64,000 bases of DNA from an uncultured Chloroflexia bacterium (GTDB lineage: Bacteria; Chloroflexota; Dehalococcoidia; DSTF01; JALHUB01), in the NCBI GenBank assembly GCA_963703345.1, contig OY969814.1:64001-128000 (forward strand), given 5' to 3'. Both the position numbers and the translations under genes were made by a program. The number at the start of each line of letters is the position of its first letter. The stretch's first letter is position 1. The notes below the pieces were generated by a model that was not told where the DNA came from, searched no databases, and saw only the letters and a program-made list of their open reading frames with translations. Below, in pieces: positions 1 through 6,282 of the stretch.

Positions 1-642
1 GCGGTCGCAATCCAAAAGGAGGATGGCGAACTCGTCGTCCGCCAGGCGCACGGCCACGTCCGAGCCGCGCTTAGCCGATTCGATAACTCCGGCGACGCGG
101 CCGAGGGCGGCGCAACCGGCTGCGTCGCCGTAAGCATGGTTGATCATCCGTAGACTGTTCACGTTCAGGACGGCCACGGAGAAAGCTTCGCCATAGCGAC
201 GCGCCCGCGAATACTCTTCGCGCAGTCGCAGCCAGAAGTACTGCTCATCAGGCAGCCCGGTGACGGCGTCGCGCGTCAGAGGCAGGCCCGTACGCACCAA
301 ACCGTTCCTTGCGCTGCGCAATCGCACGAGGGCCGTGACGCACACGACGCAGACGGCAAACGCCAACGGAAACCGCATCGCCGTTATGTAGGGCTGCGAA
401 TCGGCGCGCTCTGCCAGTCCGAGAAGCAGCGAGGAGGTGACGAGCGCGAGCGCCAGAAAGAGGTAGCGCTCCAGCTCGCGCAGTTCCGGAGGCGTCGCCC
501 GCACGGCCGCGACTTTGCCGCGCAGGTGCAGAGGATGCAGACTGGGACGGTGCCAGCCGGGCGCTTCCTCCAGGCGAGAGACACGGCGGGCGGCCGCGTC
601 TTCGCCCGAAAAGGTCTGCTGTTCCCCCAACGAATGCTTCAT
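1..642 (-). CDS. Membrane-anchored degenerate GGDEF-domain protein (3' end runs off window)
   Basis: Manual translation from ATG 642: two hydrophobic segments, then DAVTGLP...EEYSRARRYGEAFSVAVLNVNSLRMINHAYGDAAG...RGSDVAVRLADDEFAILL, a GGDEF fold with ADDEF. Confidence 0.8.
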   Translation of the reverse strand, partial: MKHSLGEQQTFSGEDAAARRVSRLEEAPGWHRPSLHPLHLRGKVAAVRATPPELRELERYLFLALALVTSSLLLGLAERADSQPYITAMRFPLAFAVCVVCVTALVRLRSARNGLVRTGLPLTRDAVTGLPDEQYFWLRLREEYSRARRYGEAFSVAVLNVNSLRMINHAYGDAAGCAALGRVAGVIESAKRGSDVAVRLADDEFAILLLDCDR

Positions 643-786
643 TGACCGAACGCTCCCGGGTCTGCCCATCCAGTAGATCATCGGCCGATTGCTGCTTACC
701 TGATGGGCGTTTGAAGGCGAAATTTGCGAAACGGGCGGCGGCGAGAAGCGGCGAGCGCGGTCTGCGGCAGTTGTAACGCCATCTCG

Positions 787-810
787 GGCCGCTCGGGTTG
801 CCGAGCGGCC
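787..810. terminator. Perfect 10-bp GC hairpin downstream of the GH31-N gene
   Basis: GGCCGCTCGG-GTTG-CCGAGCGGCC; no clear U tract. Confidence 0.4.
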
Positions 811-860
811 TCTCCCCTGCGGCGGGACCTCGTCGCTCCTGAGCGTCATCTTCGGCCGGG

Positions 861-1556
861 TCACGCCGTCTCTTTACCGCCGATCTCTGCGTATGCCATC
901 GCGATCTCGTCGCCGTCCTTGCCGAACACGACGACGTAGTCGAGATACGGATCGTCGACCCGGAAGGAGACGGTTACCGGCGAAGGAGACCCGAGCTCGA
1001 AGTCGGCCCGAGGATGGTTGAGGAAGACGCCGTAGCCTCGACTACTGGAGCACGAGGGATTCATCAGTCCCACCGCTGCCGGACAAAGAACGCGCTCCTC
1101 AGCCGACAGCTCGAAGCTTTCGTGGAAGGCGACGCGGCCGCGGGAATCGCGCGAGTAGCCAAGCGGCAGCGACACGAGGCGCGTCGGCGTTACGTCGCCG
1201 ATCTGCTGGACGATGATCTTTCGCCCCGCGAAATCGAAGACGCCGTAGTGGAAGGGACGGCGGACAACCCGTAGCTCGAGCGCCCGGCTGCGCACAACAA
1301 TCCGGCCTTCCCGCGTCTCCACTCTCACCTGCTCCGACGACTCCATCGCATCCACGCGGATCGGGCCATCAGCGACCCGTCGGCAGCGGACGCGGACGGC
1401 CTGCGGCGAGACGAAGCGGACATCCAGCGTCATCGCCTCGCCGTCGTTCGTCAGCACAGCGAAGCGGGCGCCGCCGGGCACACGATGATAGCGCTGCACT
1501 CGCGAGAGGTAGCGGTAGCTGCGCGTCGGGTCGTCGAAGATCGTGACTTCCGGCAT
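861..1556 (-). CDS. Stand-alone GH31 (alpha-xylosidase/YicI-like) N-terminal beta-sandwich domain, no catalytic barrel
   Basis: ESFELSAEER, SSRGYGVFLNHP, FELGS, SFRVDDPYLDYVVVFG...YAEIGG resemble the GH31 N-domain; GGGAGG SD before ATG. Confidence 0.6.
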   Translation of the reverse strand: MPEVTIFDDPTRSYRYLSRVQRYHRVPGGARFAVLTNDGEAMTLDVRFVSPQAVRVRCRRVADGPIRVDAMESSEQVRVETREGRIVVRSRALELRVVRRPFHYGVFDFAGRKIIVQQIGDVTPTRLVSLPLGYSRDSRGRVAFHESFELSAEERVLCPAAVGLMNPSCSSSRGYGVFLNHPRADFELGSPSPVTVSFRVDDPYLDYVVVFGKDGDEIAMAYAEIGGKETA

Positions 1557-1579: not shown

Positions 1580-1648
1580 ATTCTAGGGCCGCCGCAGCTT
1601 CCAGAGAACGACAGCGTAAGGAAAGCACAGGAAAAGCGCTGGAAAAGC
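1580..1648 (-). promoter_or_regulatory. Putative activator-dependent promoter with three phased GGAAA(A)GC repeats
   Basis: -10 TAGAAT (1580-1585), weak -35 TTCTCT 17 nt upstream, repeats starting at 1620, 1630 and 1641. Confidence 0.4.
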
Positions 1649-1737
1649 GTCAAGCTCCGGATCTGCGGCAACGCTACGATGGCGGCAGCAACGGCGATTT
1701 GTGGCCGGGGGTTTTCGAGTAGACGGTGGGGCGGTCA

Positions 1738-1770
1738 AACGGGCGGCGCCTGAGCGGGCCGCCGCTCGTT
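1738..1770 (-). terminator. Putative terminator after the GH3-wHTH gene
   Basis: 11-bp stem AACGAGCGGCG/CGCCGCCCGTT directly after TGA, short T run. Confidence 0.45.
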
Positions 1771-4607
1771 CACAGGTCGAGACGAAATCCCCGGCCTCTT
1801 ATTGTCACAATGAAGAGCTTCGAGGCGCCGGCCGCGCGCAGGCGATCGCGGACACGGTGGACCAGGGCGTCGACCGCCTCATCCGAGACCCCGCCGAACG
1901 CTTCCGGCCAGGCGCGTTGAATGATATCGTCGCGCAGACACAGCTTGCCGGCGTTCTCAAAGAGATAAGCCAGCAGCGAGTACTGCTCGCGGGACAGCGG
2001 CGGCATAATCTCTTTCCCTCTAACGAAGACTTGCTGGGTTCTCGTGTTGACGTAAAGCTCTTGCTCCTCTAACGGCTCCGCGACAAGCACCGGGAGCGCA
2101 CCGACGCCGGTCGTCGCCAGCACCGCCTCTGACGGCACAATTGCAGTAACGCGTCTACGCCGCCGAACGCGCACGAGCACGACGGCGCCGGCGGCAAGCG
2201 CAACCGCGGTCGCCATCGAAATCGACAGGATGAGCGGGAGGACAAGATCCCGGCTGCCCGACCCGCCGGCGGCGAGGTTCTGCACCGTCAGCGGTTCTGC
2301 GGACCAGGCGAGATCGCCGCTCTTGACCGTCAGACCAACGTTGCCCGACTGGTCGATGGTACCCTGGGCGCCTGCAATGCCGTCGATGGCCTGGGCCGCC
2401 ATGTCCTGGATTGTGCCGTCAGGAAGGTTGAGCACAAAGTCCACTTTCGTACCGTTCGGCACGCGATGCCCGTTCTTGGCGACCAGCGTCAACGTCAGCG
2501 CGAGCGTGAACGGCTCGCCGACGAGCAATTGCGGCGGGTCGACGCTAAGGGCCGGCGTTTGTGTCGGGTCCGCAGTGACGCTATCGCTGAGGTCGTTTAC
2601 AACGTAGCCCTCGTAGATGTAGTCGACGGGGAGCTTGCCGCTCGTAACGCCGTCGCGGAGGATCGTCGGGTCCTGGAAGAGGACCTTCAGCGTCGCCTTG
2701 AGCGACGGCTCGATCTTGCTGTACGCGGCGACGAACAAGTTTACGTTGCGCAGCTCGCCGGAGTCGAGATGATAAGGCGAGTTGTAGGCGAAGACGACGA
2801 CCTTCTTCGAACGCAAGTCGAAGAGGGCCGGGCCGCTGCGCAGGAAGTCCTTCAGGACGCCGGACGAAGGGTAGTTGGGGTCGGGCTCGAGGAAGGCGAA
2901 GACGATCCATCCCGCGTCCTCAACCGCCTTCTTGACCGCCGCATCCCCCTTGCCCGCCAGCACGGCGCCAAGCTGCGTGAAGCTGATAGTGTTCAGGTTC
3001 TCCTTCGGCACGCGCCCCGGGAACATCTGGTCAACCAGGCTTGCCAGCTTGCCGCGCGGCCAGAGAGGCGGATAGCTCGTATCGGTCCCGGGCGTGGCGC
3101 AGCCGGCATCGTCCCAGCACTCGACGAAGAGGATGTGGTCGGCAGCGCCGGGAACGGGCATCTGCCGCTGGAGCTCTTCGCTTGTCGTCGGCAGGATGAG
3201 AGTGAGCGCGTCGTCGGCTATCGAGGTCACTTCGCTCAGCCTGTCCGGCTGGCCCACCTTTCCCTGGTACTCCGGCATCTTCGTGATCGTCGCCGCATCG
3301 AAGCCGCCGTACAGCCGCGACTTGAGCGTGAGCACCCGACGGGCGGCGTCGTCTATGCGCGCCTTCACCATCGGGTCGGCGTCGTAGCGGCTGACCAGGT
3401 AGTCAACGGTTGCGGTCAGATCCTCCCACTGCCAGGGACGGATCAGCGGCAGCAGGTCGTTTCCGGCCATCAGCGCTTCCAGCGCCAAGTCCGCCTGACG
3501 GTAGGTGCCAAACTTCAGTTGCGCGTAGGCTTCGACGGCGCCGGTTGCCAGGTCGTCGGCAACAGTCACGCCGCCCGCCTGCCGCCAGGCAGCGAAGTAC
3601 GGCAGCCCGAAGAACGATTGCATGCAGGTGGGGCTGAAGCCGACCGGCGTCCCCGCTTCGCAGCCGGCGACCCCGGAGTAGCTGAGATGCGAGATCATGA
3701 TGCCGTCGGCGGTCCCCTTGTCACCCGGCTTCCCCTGCGAGACGGTGGCGAATGGAAGGAGGTCGACTTGCGCCAGCGCGTCCAGCGTCTTTCCTACGAC
3801 AACCGGCACGTCCACGGACTCCACCGAGCGCGTGCTCTCCCCGTGACCCGGGAAGTGCTTGGCAACCGCGGCCAGCTTCCCGCCGCCGCACTGCTGGATG
3901 CCGCTAACGTAGGCCGCGCCCATCTCGCCGACCCAGCGCGGGTCGCCGCCGAACACCCGTATCCCCTGGTCCCCGGCGCCGCCCGAGCGCGGCAGGTCGA
4001 GCACGTCGAGATCGGGACCGAAGAGCATGTTGACGCCCACCGCCGAAAGCTCCTGGCCGACAATGCAGCCTATCTTCTCCGCCTGGGCCGGATCGAAGGT
4101 GGCGCCGATCGTCATGTTGCTAGGGATGGGCGTGAAGCGATTGAGCAGTCGCGTCGCCGGCCGGTCGTCGCCCTCGTGGTCGATGCTCACCAGCAACGGC
4201 AGGCAGTACGTCACGCCGTTGACGGTAACGCTCATGGAGGAGCAGGCGGTCTTTTGCAGATCGTTCGTCAGGCGGGCTACCTGGGCGGGCGTGTCGGGAT
4301 CAGCTTCAGCGGGAAAGCCGCATCCCTGCGGATCGTGGTTCGTGCCGTTGAAGATGTTGCAGGTCTCGCGGCTGAGGTAGACGCCGCCGAGTTGATGGTC
4401 GTTGATGAACTGGCGCACATCAGGCGTCACCTCGTCGCCCTGGAAGCCGCTGATGAAGAGCTGCTCGACCTTTTGCCGCGCCGTCAGAGCCGCCAGTATC
4501 TTGTCGACGACATCGCTGGTTTGCGGGGTCGAGCGGGCGTACGCCGTCGGCGCGTTAAGGAACACGCCGCAGAGAAGCAGCGCCAATAGGACTCGTCGCG
4601 GTCCCAT
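1770..4607 (-). CDS. Secreted GH3 (NagZ-like) glycoside hydrolase fused via a TM helix to a C-terminal OmpR/PhoB-type winged-helix DNA-binding domain
   Basis: Signal peptide MGPRRVLLALLLCG...AYA; IDHEG, GPDLDVL, KHFPGHG, ADDL, GKLPV; TM LVLPLILSISMATAVALAAGAVVLV-RVRRRRR; PPLSREQYSLLAYL...AWPEA...VDALVHRVRDRL...IVTIRGRGFRL. Confidence 0.9.
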   Translation of the reverse strand: MGPRRVLLALLLCGVFLNAPTAYARSTPQTSDVVDKILAALTARQKVEQLFISGFQGDEVTPDVRQFINDHQLGGVYLSRETCNIFNGTNHDPQGCGFPAEADPDTPAQVARLTNDLQKTACSSMSVTVNGVTYCLPLLVSIDHEGDDRPATRLLNRFTPIPSNMTIGATFDPAQAEKIGCIVGQELSAVGVNMLFGPDLDVLDLPRSGGAGDQGIRVFGGDPRWVGEMGAAYVSGIQQCGGGKLAAVAKHFPGHGESTRSVESVDVPVVVGKTLDALAQVDLLPFATVSQGKPGDKGTADGIMISHLSYSGVAGCEAGTPVGFSPTCMQSFFGLPYFAAWRQAGGVTVADDLATGAVEAYAQLKFGTYRQADLALEALMAGNDLLPLIRPWQWEDLTATVDYLVSRYDADPMVKARIDDAARRVLTLKSRLYGGFDAATITKMPEYQGKVGQPDRLSEVTSIADDALTLILPTTSEELQRQMPVPGAADHILFVECWDDAGCATPGTDTSYPPLWPRGKLASLVDQMFPGRVPKENLNTISFTQLGAVLAGKGDAAVKKAVEDAGWIVFAFLEPDPNYPSSGVLKDFLRSGPALFDLRSKKVVVFAYNSPYHLDSGELRNVNLFVAAYSKIEPSLKATLKVLFQDPTILRDGVTSGKLPVDYIYEGYVVNDLSDSVTADPTQTPALSVDPPQLLVGEPFTLALTLTLVAKNGHRVPNGTKVDFVLNLPDGTIQDMAAQAIDGIAGAQGTIDQSGNVGLTVKSGDLAWSAEPLTVQNLAAGGSGSRDLVLPLILSISMATAVALAAGAVVLVRVRRRRRVTAIVPSEAVLATTGVGALPVLVAEPLEEQELYVNTRTQQVFVRGKEIMPPLSREQYSLLAYLFENAGKLCLRDDIIQRAWPEAFGGVSDEAVDALVHRVRDRLRAAGASKLFIVTIRGRGFRLDL

Positions 4608-4665
4608 GCTAGGCAGAGTATAGGCTCCAGCAGCGCTGAAGCATAGGGGTCTAGGGATGCTTTTC

Positions 4666-6168
4666 CTAACGAACCCAGTGCCTGGCGCGATCCACGGCTT
4701 GCTTCCAGCCGGCGTACATCTCCTCGCGCCTGGCTTCGTCCATCTGCGGCTCAAAGACGCGGTCGGCGTGCCAGAGCCGGCCCAACTCGTCGCGACTCGA
4801 CCAGAAGCCAGCGCCCAGTCCGGCCAGGAACGCCGCGCCCAGGGCGGTCGTCTCCAGCACGGCGGAGCGCAGCACGCGACGCCCCAGGATGTCGGCCTGG
4901 ATCTGCATCAGCAGGTTGTTGCGGGCGGCGCCGCCGTCGACGCGCAGCTCCGGCATGCTCACACCCGACTCTCGCTCCATCGCCTCGACGACGTCGCGCG
5001 ACTGGAAAGCGATCGCCTCCAGCGTCGCGCGGGCGATGTGGGCGGCAGTCGTGCCCCGCGTCATGCCGAGGATGGCGCCGCGGGCGTACTGGTCCCAGTA
5101 AGGCGCGCCAAGGCCAACGAAGGCGGGCACCATATAGACGCCATCGCTGGACTCGACGCCGGAAGCGAGCGATTCGACTTCGCTTGACCTGCCGATTACC
5201 CCGAGCCCATCGCGCAGCCAGGCGACAGCCGCGCCGGTGACGAAGATGCTCCCCTCCAGCGCATATCCCAGCTCATCGCCGAGCTGCGAGGCGACGGTCG
5301 CAAGCATCGTCTGCGACGGCGCGACCCGGTCGCCGGTGTGCATGAGGACGAAGGAGCCGGTGCCGTAGGTGTTCTTCGCCATTCCCGGGCTGAAGCAGCC
5401 CTGGCCGAAGAGCGACGCTTGCTGGTCGCCGGCGATGCCCGCCACGGGCGCTTCGATCCCCAGCAGCGACTTCTCGGTGGTGCCGACGGCGCCGCTGGAG
5501 GGCCGGATCTCAGGCAGGACGGCCTCCGGCACATCCAGCTCGCGCAGCAGATCGGGGTCCCAGGCGCCGCGACGCAGATTGTAGAGCATCGTGCGGGAGG
5601 CGTTCGTGGCGTCGGTCACGTGAGCGGCGCCGCCGGTGAGGCGGTAGGTGAGCCAGCTATCAACGGTTCCGAACGCCAGCTCGCCCCGCTCCGCCTTTCG
5701 CCGCGCCCCGTCGACGTTGTCCAATATCCAGCGCAGCTTCGTACCCGAGAAGTAGGCGTCGATGACGAGGCCGGTGCGTTCGCGGACAAACGATTCCATG
5801 CCCCGCGCGCGCATCTCGTCGCACATCGAAGCGGTGCGCCGGCACTGCCAAACGATGGCGTTGTAGACGGGCCGGCCGCTGGCGCGCTCCCAGACGATCG
5901 TCGTCTCCCGCTGGTTCGTTACGCCGACCGCGGCGACGTCCGAGGCGTCGATGCCCGTCTGAGCGGCCTTTCGCAGCACCTGCCTGGCGGCAGCAAGCTG
6001 GGAGGACCAGATCTCCTCGGGGTCGTGCTCCACCCAGCCGGCCTGGGGGTAGATCTGCCGGAAGGACTCGCCGGCCTCAACGACCGGTTTCCCGACTTCG
6101 TCGAAGAGGACGGCGCGGGAGCTGGAGGTCCCCTGGTCAAGCGATAGGATGTAGCGGGCCGTCGCCGT
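4666..6168 (-). CDS. glpK: Glycerol kinase (start codon non-canonical or uncertain)
   Basis: [57 protein letters not shown]; N-terminus extends upstream of the ORF-track start. Confidence 0.93.
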
Positions 6169-6282
6169 TCCCTCGAGCGTTTTGCGTCAGTATAAGCCAG
6201 CCAAGCCGCATGAGGTCAACGCCTATATTCATCGCTCCCCACCTTGGCTCCGAGTGGAGTATCATGCGAACGGAGGCGCAAG

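Follow-up and report, generated by a model that had tools for sequence, protein, structure and literature searches.

A conserved Chloroflexota membrane protein joining a NagZ-type glycosidase fold to an OmpR-type winged helix: a candidate single-pass receptor with exchangeable outputs

Gene and reading frame

We investigated a 64,000-nucleotide stretch of the genome of an uncultured Chloroflexia bacterium (GenBank assembly GCA_963703345.1, contig OY969814.1, positions 64,001 to 128,000 of the forward strand; GTDB lineage Chloroflexota, Dehalococcoidia, DSTF01, JALHUB01), which is called the window throughout, and in it the gene of a predicted single-pass membrane protein. The gene occupies window positions 1770..4607 on the minus strand as one uninterrupted open reading frame (ORF) of 945 amino acids (aa), with its ATG at 4607-4605 and its TGA at 1772-1770, and the product comprises, in order, a glycoside hydrolase family 3 (GH3) module, an immunoglobulin (Ig)-like stalk, a transmembrane (TM) helix, and a winged helix-turn-helix (wHTH). 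An alternative, longer frame from a TTG at 4754 would overlap the end of the upstream glpK gene, and its use is unlikely because a -10-like hexamer, TATACT (4617..4622, minus strand), lies 9 nt before the ATG, as it likewise does in orthologues. The hexamer probably belongs to a promoter of the gene's own.

Domain architecture and predicted structure

Pfam assigned Glyco_hydro_3 (PF00933) to residues 44-428 (E 1.2e-34; 120.6 bits vs. a cut-off of 27) and Trans_reg_C (PF00486) to residues 870-943 (E 2.8e-15; 56.6 bits vs. a cut-off of 26.2). The nearest NCBIfam models were those of NagZ-type beta-N-acetylhexosaminidases and of PhoB-type regulators, all of which scored below their equivalog thresholds (71.8 vs. 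207 for the NagZ equivalog), and the sequence matches in the Protein Data Bank (PDB) were 6k5j, 4zm6, and YbbD for the GH3 part and the DNA-binding domains of RegX3, VicR, and WalR for the wHTH. In the 945-aa protein, no receiver (Response_reg) was matched by Pfam or NCBIfam and no kinase domain by Pfam; judged by this domain content, it is not a response regulator and lacks both the receiver domain and the phospho-acceptor aspartate. An earlier note, made from the letters of the window, had read the ORF as a signal peptide, a GH3 barrel, a second domain ending in GKLPV, an Ig-like segment, a hydrophobic helix with RVRRRRR, a linker, and a wHTH, with no receiver or kinase domain; every one of these parts was recovered by Pfam, hydropathy, or structural modeling, the C-terminal domain does match Trans_reg_C, and the two absences agree with Pfam.

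Hydropathy analysis (19-aa windows, Kyte-Doolittle value >= 1.6) found just two strongly hydrophobic stretches, namely residues 6-24 and 786-815. The first falls within a predicted Sec signal peptide (residues 1-24, window 4536..4607, minus strand as for all features of the gene below; MGPRRVLLALLLCGVFLNAPTAYA / RS, that is, …NAPTAYA/RS), and an N-terminal hydrophobic stretch is also present in the A1 members with a full N-terminus. The second holds the 25-aa core of the TM helix (residues 788-812; 2172..2246), which is a helix in the model as well and is followed by the positive-inside cluster RVRRRRR (residues 813-819; 2151..2171); an Arg cluster stands directly after the TM helix in 13/13 aligned orthologues. 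Ten cysteines are invariant in the N-terminal part of the family (27 members), and a family-specific Cys-rich insert spans approximately residues 80-135. On the strength of the signal peptide, the positive-inside cluster, and the ten invariant N-terminal cysteines, we predict an N-out/C-in topology, with the ectodomain outside and the wHTH inside; this is the reversal of the ToxR/CadC layout that the earlier note had put forward.

An AlphaFold2 model built from 27 family members (mean pLDDT 76.4, pTM 0.68) contained a confident barrel, a confident second alpha/beta domain, a beta-sandwich (residues 685-776), a helix (790-816), a disordered segment (817-847), and the wHTH (850-945). Residues 44-428 (3324..4478) comprise the N-terminal (beta/alpha)8 barrel of NagZ type, assigned from Pfam, PDB sequence matches, the model, and Foldseek, and residues ~431-660 (2628..3317), which end at GKLPV (657-661), comprise the second alpha/beta domain of the two-domain NagZ fold, assigned from the model and Foldseek. 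In the Foldseek search of the PDB, Bacillus subtilis NagZ/YbbD (4gyj, a structure solved with GlcNAc-MurNAc) ranked first (TM-score to target 0.72, ~700 columns, probability 1.00), and the Paenibacillus GH3 beta-N-acetylglucosaminidase 6k5j was also matched (TM-score to target 0.85, probability 1.00). Since these matches extend over both ectodomain domains, the first two domains correspond to the two-domain Gram-positive NagZ fold. In the ESM Atlas, residues 430-785 matched unnamed Chloroflexota clusters only.

The Ig-like beta-sandwich stalk (residues 685-776; 2280..2555) has model strands with pLDDT 85-92 and weak Pfam matches to Big_1 and PKD, each in 4/27 relatives. Behind the TM helix and its Arg cluster, a variable cytoplasmic linker (residues 820-849; 2061..2150) is predicted to be disordered (pLDDT < 50) and differs in length among orthologues. 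The OmpR/PhoB-type wHTH (residues 850-945; 1773..2060, with the Pfam match at 1779-2000) was modeled at pLDDT 83-91 with strands at 851-854 and 859-862, helices at 873-884, 892-899, and 909-925, and strands at 933-936 and 940-943, which is the OmpR-type order of strands, three helices, and a C-terminal hairpin wing; from sequence and model, the recognition helix, SDEAVDALVHRVRDRL, is encoded at 1839-1886 and the wing, RGRGFR, at 1782-1799.

Conservation of the fusion

A search with the C-terminal part of the protein (residues 790-945; proteins limited to 519-1654 aa) gave 27 proteins including the query, 897-993 aa in length, and PF00933 together with PF00486 was found in 27/27, again in a fresh Pfam scan. 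Of 301 genomes sampled from the class, 23 had a match at E <= 1e-20, and in 16 of them the match extends to the wHTH; these 16 belong to several families, with identities down to 36-41%. Within the order, a match at E <= 1e-80 was present in 32/93 genomes (25/48 of the high-quality ones), with tallies by group of 7/8 in genus g1, 20/36 in family f3, 2/16 in family f4, and 0/21 in family f2; these tallies include one genome flagged as unpublished (G230), which was used for no other result. The fusion, for which the earlier note had wished to see other genomes, was therefore assembled independently many times and is no singleton. A chimeric assembly was ruled out by this full-length architecture in independent assemblies, together with the source genome being a single 2.28-Mb contig.

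Identity to the window protein in 13 orthologues was 48-91% for the wHTH, 40-89% for the barrel, 29-90% for the second domain, 24-80% for the Ig domain, and 17-67% for the linker. In the eight most distant of these orthologues the wHTH is the best kept part (48-52% vs. 40-44% for the barrel), with the Ig domain and the linker far lower, and its recognition helix and wing are almost invariant among relatives. Decay of the wHTH, a possibility that the earlier note had raised, is the opposite of this pattern.

Among DNA sequencing runs, one from freshwater sediment (X1, Logan contigs) holds 0.44 of the sampled words, with ten short contigs on window positions 1600-4800 (9 at >= 99% identity), one 151-nt contig that covers 2177-2327, and 7/30 bins uncovered; its contigs cover the gene in pieces only, and none spans the whole TM-to-wHTH junction. 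A pattern search of genome contigs, with patterns that were too general and in 1/64 parts scanned, returned generic GH3 genes only.

The protein has no paralogue in its own genome; besides it, Trans_reg_C matches 8 proteins there, all of them either response regulators or a fused kinase-regulator. Separately, a 1073-aa frame (L002; G000:C1:726085-729372) joins PAS-like and histidine-kinase parts, a receiver, and an OmpR-type wHTH, and on its domain order is a whole two-component pathway in one polypeptide. Among the long proteins scanned from the best 150 of 3094 wHTH matches (30 by Pfam, 19 by hydropathy), no other type-I protein with a related wHTH was found; the long matches scanned were N-truncated pieces of the GH3-wHTH family, response regulators, or STAND-NTPase-wHTH proteins.

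The same ectodomain with other outputs

Of 306 proteins matched at E <= 1e-30 in a search with the GH3 part (residues 40-470), we classified the best 120 by precomputed Pfam labels and hydropathy. Among these 120, 58 end in Trans_reg_C, 6 carry Pkinase (one also with Guanylate_cyc and one with an alpha/beta hydrolase), and 2 carry Guanylate_cyc alone; a further 39 have 2-3 C-terminal TM helices without a cytoplasmic domain, 6 end <= 40 residues after a single TM helix, 8 are without a TM helix or partial, and 1 is cut inside the wHTH. Some of the 6 short TM-ending forms are probably truncated (P0028 is a near-identical sister of a wHTH form).

In a Pfam scan of 25 relatives, GH3 came first (~45-430) and the output last in 9/9 output-bearing proteins, as exemplified by Guanylate_cyc at 843-995 in P0029 and Pkinase at 871-1124 in P0039. 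A signal-peptide-like start was present in most of the scanned output-bearing forms, and a TM helix between ectodomain and output in all of them. Moreover, one N-truncated protein runs from an ectodomain piece through a TM helix into Guanylate_cyc and then Trans_reg_C. Some close relatives share the ectodomain, Ig stalk, and TM helix of the window protein but continue into a Hanks-type kinase, a class III nucleotide cyclase, or both.

Trees were built from ectodomain columns only (FastTree, 111 rows; IQ-TREE, 42 rows), and in both, the forms with a kinase or a cyclase branch from within the wHTH clade, the wHTH label needing 7 changes in the FastTree tree. The IQ-TREE tree contained the groupings (P0038 wHTH,(P0040,P0041 kinase)) and (P0039 kinase, P0045 cyclase), each with an SH-aLRT support of 100. 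Forcing all wHTH forms together costs 705 log-likelihood units and is rejected by the AU test (p 1e-10), the group for which was chosen after the first tree had been seen.

When classical signaling outputs are swapped repeatedly behind one extracytoplasmic module, that module is usually a sensor domain. Because the same ectodomain is joined to wHTH, kinase, and cyclase outputs in relatives, we read the GH3 ectodomain as a receptor module; the comparison of these sequences thereby adds to the earlier note the finding that a glycosidase-fold ectodomain is predicted to be a shared receptor module with swappable outputs.

Active site and sugar pocket

Aligned with 6k5j and YbbD, the barrel contains the KHFPGHG motif and the catalytic loop (residues 250-266; 3810..3860), of which the part after the motif (residues 253-266) has low model confidence. 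At the dyad position the protein has ESTR-SVE, vs. D-S-H four residues after GHG in NagZ, and the loop in its relatives reads x-S-[TDN]-R and then x-x-[DE], where S258, R260, and D/E263 are invariant. DSH is retained in six stand-alone GH3 genes from genomes of the same class, and YbbD has DTDVDSH. The Asp-His dyad (D-[ST]-H) by which NagZ-type GH3 enzymes are recognized is absent, so we class the protein as a GH3 member but not as a canonical NagZ. In the available sections of PMC5063960, the dyad is described as essential in NagZ.

The codon of Asp351 (3555..3557) aligns with the Asp of the nucleophile motif in 6k5j, and D351 is invariant in 27/27 members. We take this position to be that of the NagZ catalytic nucleophile, which the "D318N" in the title of 4gyj fits. 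Further, nine pocket positions (D143, R217, K250, H251, S258, R260, D/E263, H307, and D351) are invariant in 72/72 proteins, comprising 58 wHTH, 6 kinase, 2 cyclase, and 6 anchored forms, and their invariance across all signaling and anchored forms indicates that the pocket is under strong selection. In the sister clade ending in 2-3 TM helices (P0059, P0064-P0073, and others; 39/120), position 143 varies; it is Asp in all signaling forms.

A pseudoenzyme reading from the loss of the dyad alone was not adopted, the loss being subfamily-wide and a conserved carboxylate standing at the position. We consider it about evenly balanced whether the ectodomain cleaves its ligand, a carboxylate at 263 standing in for the His, or binds the ligand without cleavage, like the fungal sensor Ngs1. 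The earlier note had proposed a whole glycosidase as the sensor: the sensor role gains support from the kinase and cyclase outputs on the same ectodomain, whereas "whole glycosidase" is left uncertain by the missing Asp-His dyad.

Promoter and candidate operators

A -10-like hexamer, [TCG]ATA[AC]T, was found in 26/29 orthologous loci in the 100 nt upstream that were examined (vs. 0.027 expected per 100 nt), and in a 27th locus (L007) a -10-like hexamer lies 8 nt before the ATG. In most orthologous loci an ATG or GTG follows the hexamer by 6-9 nt, and this spacing makes it likely that the gene is transcribed from a separate promoter into an mRNA with almost no leader. The hexamer came from the orthologue comparison, a consensus promoter scan having given no match at the gene start. 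Genus g1 additionally has a fixed CTATGC, 18 nt upstream of the -10 hexamer.

Further upstream of the gene, 4/29 loci (families f4, f52, and f28) carry 2-4 CCTTGCG-like units in 11-bp phase. Such 11-bp-phased repeats have the geometry expected of an OmpR-type site and are a candidate operator, which we offer as a lead only. In one relative (G190), the tandem CCTTGCG pattern had 11 matches vs. 2 for the reversed control, and 7/8 repeat regions were promoter-proximal by rough gene calls, the eighth lying inside an RNA polymerase subunit gene. The promoter-proximal repeats precede (i) the GH3-wHTH gene, (ii) a class A penicillin-binding protein (PBP; Transgly + Transpeptidase), (iii) an M23 peptidase lipoprotein, (iv) two further exported proteins, (v) a glutaredoxin-reductase fusion, and (vi) an E1 dehydrogenase. 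Two intergenic arrays of this genome (G190:C1:2218510-2218549 and 705832-705860; L159 and L157), each with 3-4 units of an 11-bp repeat (CCTTGCGCTTT-like), precede the E1 dehydrogenase gene and a PD40 lipoprotein gene.

Six loci of family f3 (L124, L128, L129, L130, L131, and L134) share, ~30-80 nt upstream of the -10 hexamer, a common GGTTAACCTT[TC]CG and a palindrome-like GTTACGTATG[CT]AAC. From their sequences, these elements are a candidate operator distinct from the CCTTGCG repeats.

Neighboring genes

We scanned and clustered 96 neighbor proteins from 13 loci. Envelope genes occur among them sporadically, namely pbpC with A2M (L028, where the gene is divergent from a class A PBP and alpha-2-macroglobulin gene), an AT3-SGNH acyltransferase (L018), and PMT_2 or GT2 genes (L024 and L025).

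In the window, the glpK gene just upstream encodes a glycerol kinase frame with FGGY_N and FGGY_C (minus strand; start region at 6151-6189), in which no ATG, GTG, or TTG occurs between the stop at 6189-6187 and the conserved N-terminus. An ACG (6162-6160), with GAGGGA 6 nt upstream of it, stands where a same-genus relative has ATG, so that either a non-canonical start is in use or the start codon has been lost. Downstream, a 231-aa ORF (861-1556, minus strand) is without a Pfam match; its residues 168-228 match the N-terminal region (~199-268) of GH31 YicI-type alpha-glucosidases (~775 aa), and the ORF, which by this similarity looks like a relic GH31 fragment, is kept in the same-genus relative. 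A gene of a membrane-associated GGDEF diguanylate cyclase (1-864, minus strand) is cut by the window edge, and its synteny extends within the same genus only.

Proposed mechanism and alternatives

We propose that the protein is a conserved single-pass, one-component TM receptor in which occupancy of the sugar pocket alters the pairing of two receptors and lets the tethered wHTH bind DNA, an account that we hold to be probable on balance. The two-domain NagZ-type GH3 module is predicted to be exposed at the cell surface, where it would serve as the signal input, with the OmpR-type wHTH held in the cytoplasm. Ligand occupancy would change receptor pairing, the change would pass through the Ig stalk and the TM helix, and the tethered wHTH domains would then bind DNA and switch genes. 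All three kinds of output are active as dimers: wHTH domains of the OmpR family work in pairs on direct repeats, the active site of a class III cyclase arises where two subunits meet, and dimerization switches on Hanks receptor kinases. It is for this reason that we propose ligand-dependent pairing.

The ligand may be a glycan with a terminal beta-GlcNAc, since the ectodomain has the fold of NagZ/YbbD, the muropeptide enzyme that B. subtilis secretes. Most plausible would be a fragment from peptidoglycan turnover, for example GlcNAc-MurNAc-peptide, because peptidoglycan genes are present in the genome (3 transpeptidase matches and 2 to FtsW/RodA) and the domain would lie between membrane and wall. 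A broader proposal, which we advance tentatively and rate as possible rather than probable, is that the NagZ-type GH3 ectodomain is an unrecognized Chloroflexota receptor module, which, with an Ig stalk and one TM helix, would make up type-I single-pass receptors that report peptidoglycan turnover fragments at the cell surface through ligand-dependent pairing and interchangeable outputs (wHTH, Hanks kinase, and cyclase).

Several observations weigh against a sugar receptor with a DNA-binding output. In the pocket, a His in the 14 residues after HFPGHG is absent in 58/58 wHTH forms, and with the NagZ acid/base dyad missing, the ectodomain cannot be presumed to be catalytic or to share the specificity of NagZ; the dyad has been lost across the subfamily, also in forms without a cytoplasmic domain, so that its loss does not itself mark a switch to sensing. 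The ancestral role may have been that of a plain anchored enzyme, because of the 39/120 multi-TM forms without an output and the 6 that end soon after the TM helix, and the choice of the AU-test group after the first tree tempers the support for repeated output exchange. On the DNA side, CCTTGCG-N4-CCTTGCG is not enriched in the protein's own genome (46 vs. 56 for the control at <= 2 mismatches), the repeats are absent there upstream of the GH3-wHTH gene and of the class A PBP, and those in relatives could belong to another OmpR-family regulator. Moreover, among the 13 loci no conserved neighbor is common to different families, synteny being confined to genus or family, so that a regulon cannot be read from gene context; and no RNA run was listed with matching words.

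One alternative, which we regard as unlikely, is that the protein is chiefly an enzyme, that is, a membrane-anchored exo-glycosidase harvesting cell-wall or chitin-type sugars, to which the wHTH is an autoregulatory add-on (a "trigger enzyme") with no wider regulon. The invariant pocket and nucleophile residues would suit such an enzyme, as would the make-up of the subfamily, in which some forms are secreted and have no TM helix, some are anchored by several TM helices, and some lack a cytoplasmic domain; phased repeats do stand upstream of the gene itself in 4/29 loci. However, the NagZ catalytic His is absent, the repeats in G190 also precede the class A PBP, the M23 peptidase, and other genes, and kinase and cyclase outputs cannot be simple autoregulators.

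Regulated proteolysis, by which RsgI or RseA-type anti-sigma factors are processed, is a second alternative and in our judgment a quite improbable one: here, a ligand or cell-wall stress would cause the ectodomain to be shed and the protein to be cut within the membrane, and the soluble wHTH fragment thus set free would regulate genes. The single TM helix does contain Pro, Ser, and Gly, and the linker is long and disordered in the model. ToxR-type regulators nevertheless work without leaving the membrane, neither a cleavage motif nor a gene for a partner protease turned up nearby, and the kinase and cyclase outputs on the same ectodomain and TM helix would gain nothing from release. We rank proteolysis below pairing for this last reason, a common conformational or dimerization mechanism being more economical. 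RsgI-type sensors are described in the available sections of PMC10328401 and PMC12203970 as signaling through autoproteolysis and RseP cleavage, a precedent in favor of proteolysis. An artefact or a decaying fusion, be it a chimeric assembly or a recent accidental joining with the wHTH out of use, has a negligible chance of being correct, given the single 2.28-Mb contig, the independent assemblies (27/27, 16/301, and 32/93), and a wHTH that is the best-conserved domain in distant orthologues, with a nearly invariant recognition helix and wing.

With a whole glycosidase fold as its proposed input, a reversed layout, and one input wired to three output classes, the family offers a natural experiment on signal transfer through the membrane by a single-pass receptor of bacteria. 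Were the ligand a muropeptide, the protein would give a large, uncultured, peptidoglycan-bearing group of Chloroflexota a way to monitor its own wall. If the receptor-module proposal is true, an enzyme fold would here have given bacteria a counterpart of receptor kinases that is analogous in function to PASTA kinases. The ectodomain module could also be reused as a glycan biosensor.

Comparison with known systems

One-component membrane regulators are usually described with a ToxR layout and small sensors. Like ToxR, CadC, and TcpP, the window protein is one polypeptide in which a flexible tether and a single TM helix connect an OmpR-type wHTH with an extracytoplasmic sensor, without a phosphorelay. 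It differs from them in (i) its reversed order, with the sensor N-terminal and the wHTH C-terminal (type I, not type II), and (ii) its sensor, which is a ~750-aa glycosidase-fold module with an Ig stalk rather than a small periplasmic domain; no ToxR/CadC sensor domain was matched by Pfam in the window protein. A narrow ToxR/CadC-type regulator has a cytoplasmic N-terminal wHTH and a C-terminal periplasmic sensor, and with its sensor at 1-780, TM helix at 788-812, and wHTH at 850-945, the protein is not of that type, because the order is reversed and the sensor unrelated. In the wide sense of a census of transmembrane transcription regulators (TTRs; PMC10269533), namely one-component proteins with a DNA-binding domain and at least one TM region, it is a TTR.

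With B. subtilis NagZ (YbbD) and the Paenibacillus GH3 enzyme (4gyj, 3bmx, and 6k5j), the protein shares the exported two-domain GH3 fold, KHFPGHG, the aligned Asp, and the pocket residues. It differs in having S-V-E for D-S-H (S/x-V/T-D/E family-wide) and an invariant loop Ser and Arg, and it adds the Cys-rich insert, the Ig stalk, the TM helix, and the wHTH. B. subtilis NagZ itself is, in the available sections of PMC8054146, a secreted exo-enzyme that cleaves GlcNAc-MurNAc outside the cell.

Ngs1 of Candida albicans offers a parallel for a NagZ-homologous domain turned sensor. In the available sections of PMC5063960, Ngs1 joins a GH3-like domain that senses GlcNAc to a GNAT domain; Leu takes the place of the dyad His, hydrolase activity is reported not to have been found, and GlcNAc binding drives transcription. 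Common to both proteins, as far as those sections describe Ngs1, would be a NagZ-homologous domain without the dyad His that acts as a sugar sensor controlling transcription in one polypeptide, and the Ngs1 structural relative 4zm6 is the second-best PDB sequence match of the window protein. Ngs1 differs in being eukaryotic and intracellular and in working through histone acetylation, whereas the window protein has a predicted extracytoplasmic sensor and a DNA-binding output across the membrane. Because the dyad position of the window family holds a conserved carboxylate, its members may, unlike Ngs1, have retained activity.

Two bacterial systems share the placing of a carbohydrate sensor outside the cell. 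The SusR-like regulators of Bacteroides, as set out in the available sections of PMC3878776, combine periplasmic sugar binding with a C-terminal DNA-binding domain, have predicted sites that are direct repeats, and are confined to Bacteroidetes. On that description SusR matches the window protein as a membrane regulator with an extracytoplasmic sugar sensor and a C-terminal DNA-binding domain, but its sensor, which is without an enzyme fold, and its DNA-binding domain are unrelated to those of the window protein. The RsgI anti-sigma factors of Clostridium thermocellum, in the available sections of PMC10328401 and PMC4711584, have extracellular carbohydrate-binding module (CBM) or GH sensor modules, so that carbohydrate-active modules outside the cell sense for a single-pass TM signaling protein, as proposed here. 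RsgI differs in its N-in topology and in its output, which is sequestration of a sigma factor, relieved by proteolysis, with no DNA-binding domain.

A match in domain order comes from the TTR census, whose supplement file 2 has 15 "Glyco_hydro_18,LytTR" proteins with 1-2 TM regions (PMC10269533). In these rows, as in the window protein, a GH domain is listed first and a DNA-binding domain last, but both belong to other families, and the proteins appear there as table rows only; our literature search found no characterization of them. Among the 25 Glyco_hydro rows of the same supplement there is no Glyco_hydro_3, and in the literature searched we found no description of a GH3 and OmpR-wHTH membrane protein. 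The earlier note's view that the architecture had not been described therefore stands for the GH3-wHTH domain pair and for that pair only, as the design principle has precedents in SusR (PMC3878776), Ngs1 (PMC5063960), and the Glyco_hydro_18-LytTR rows (PMC10269533).

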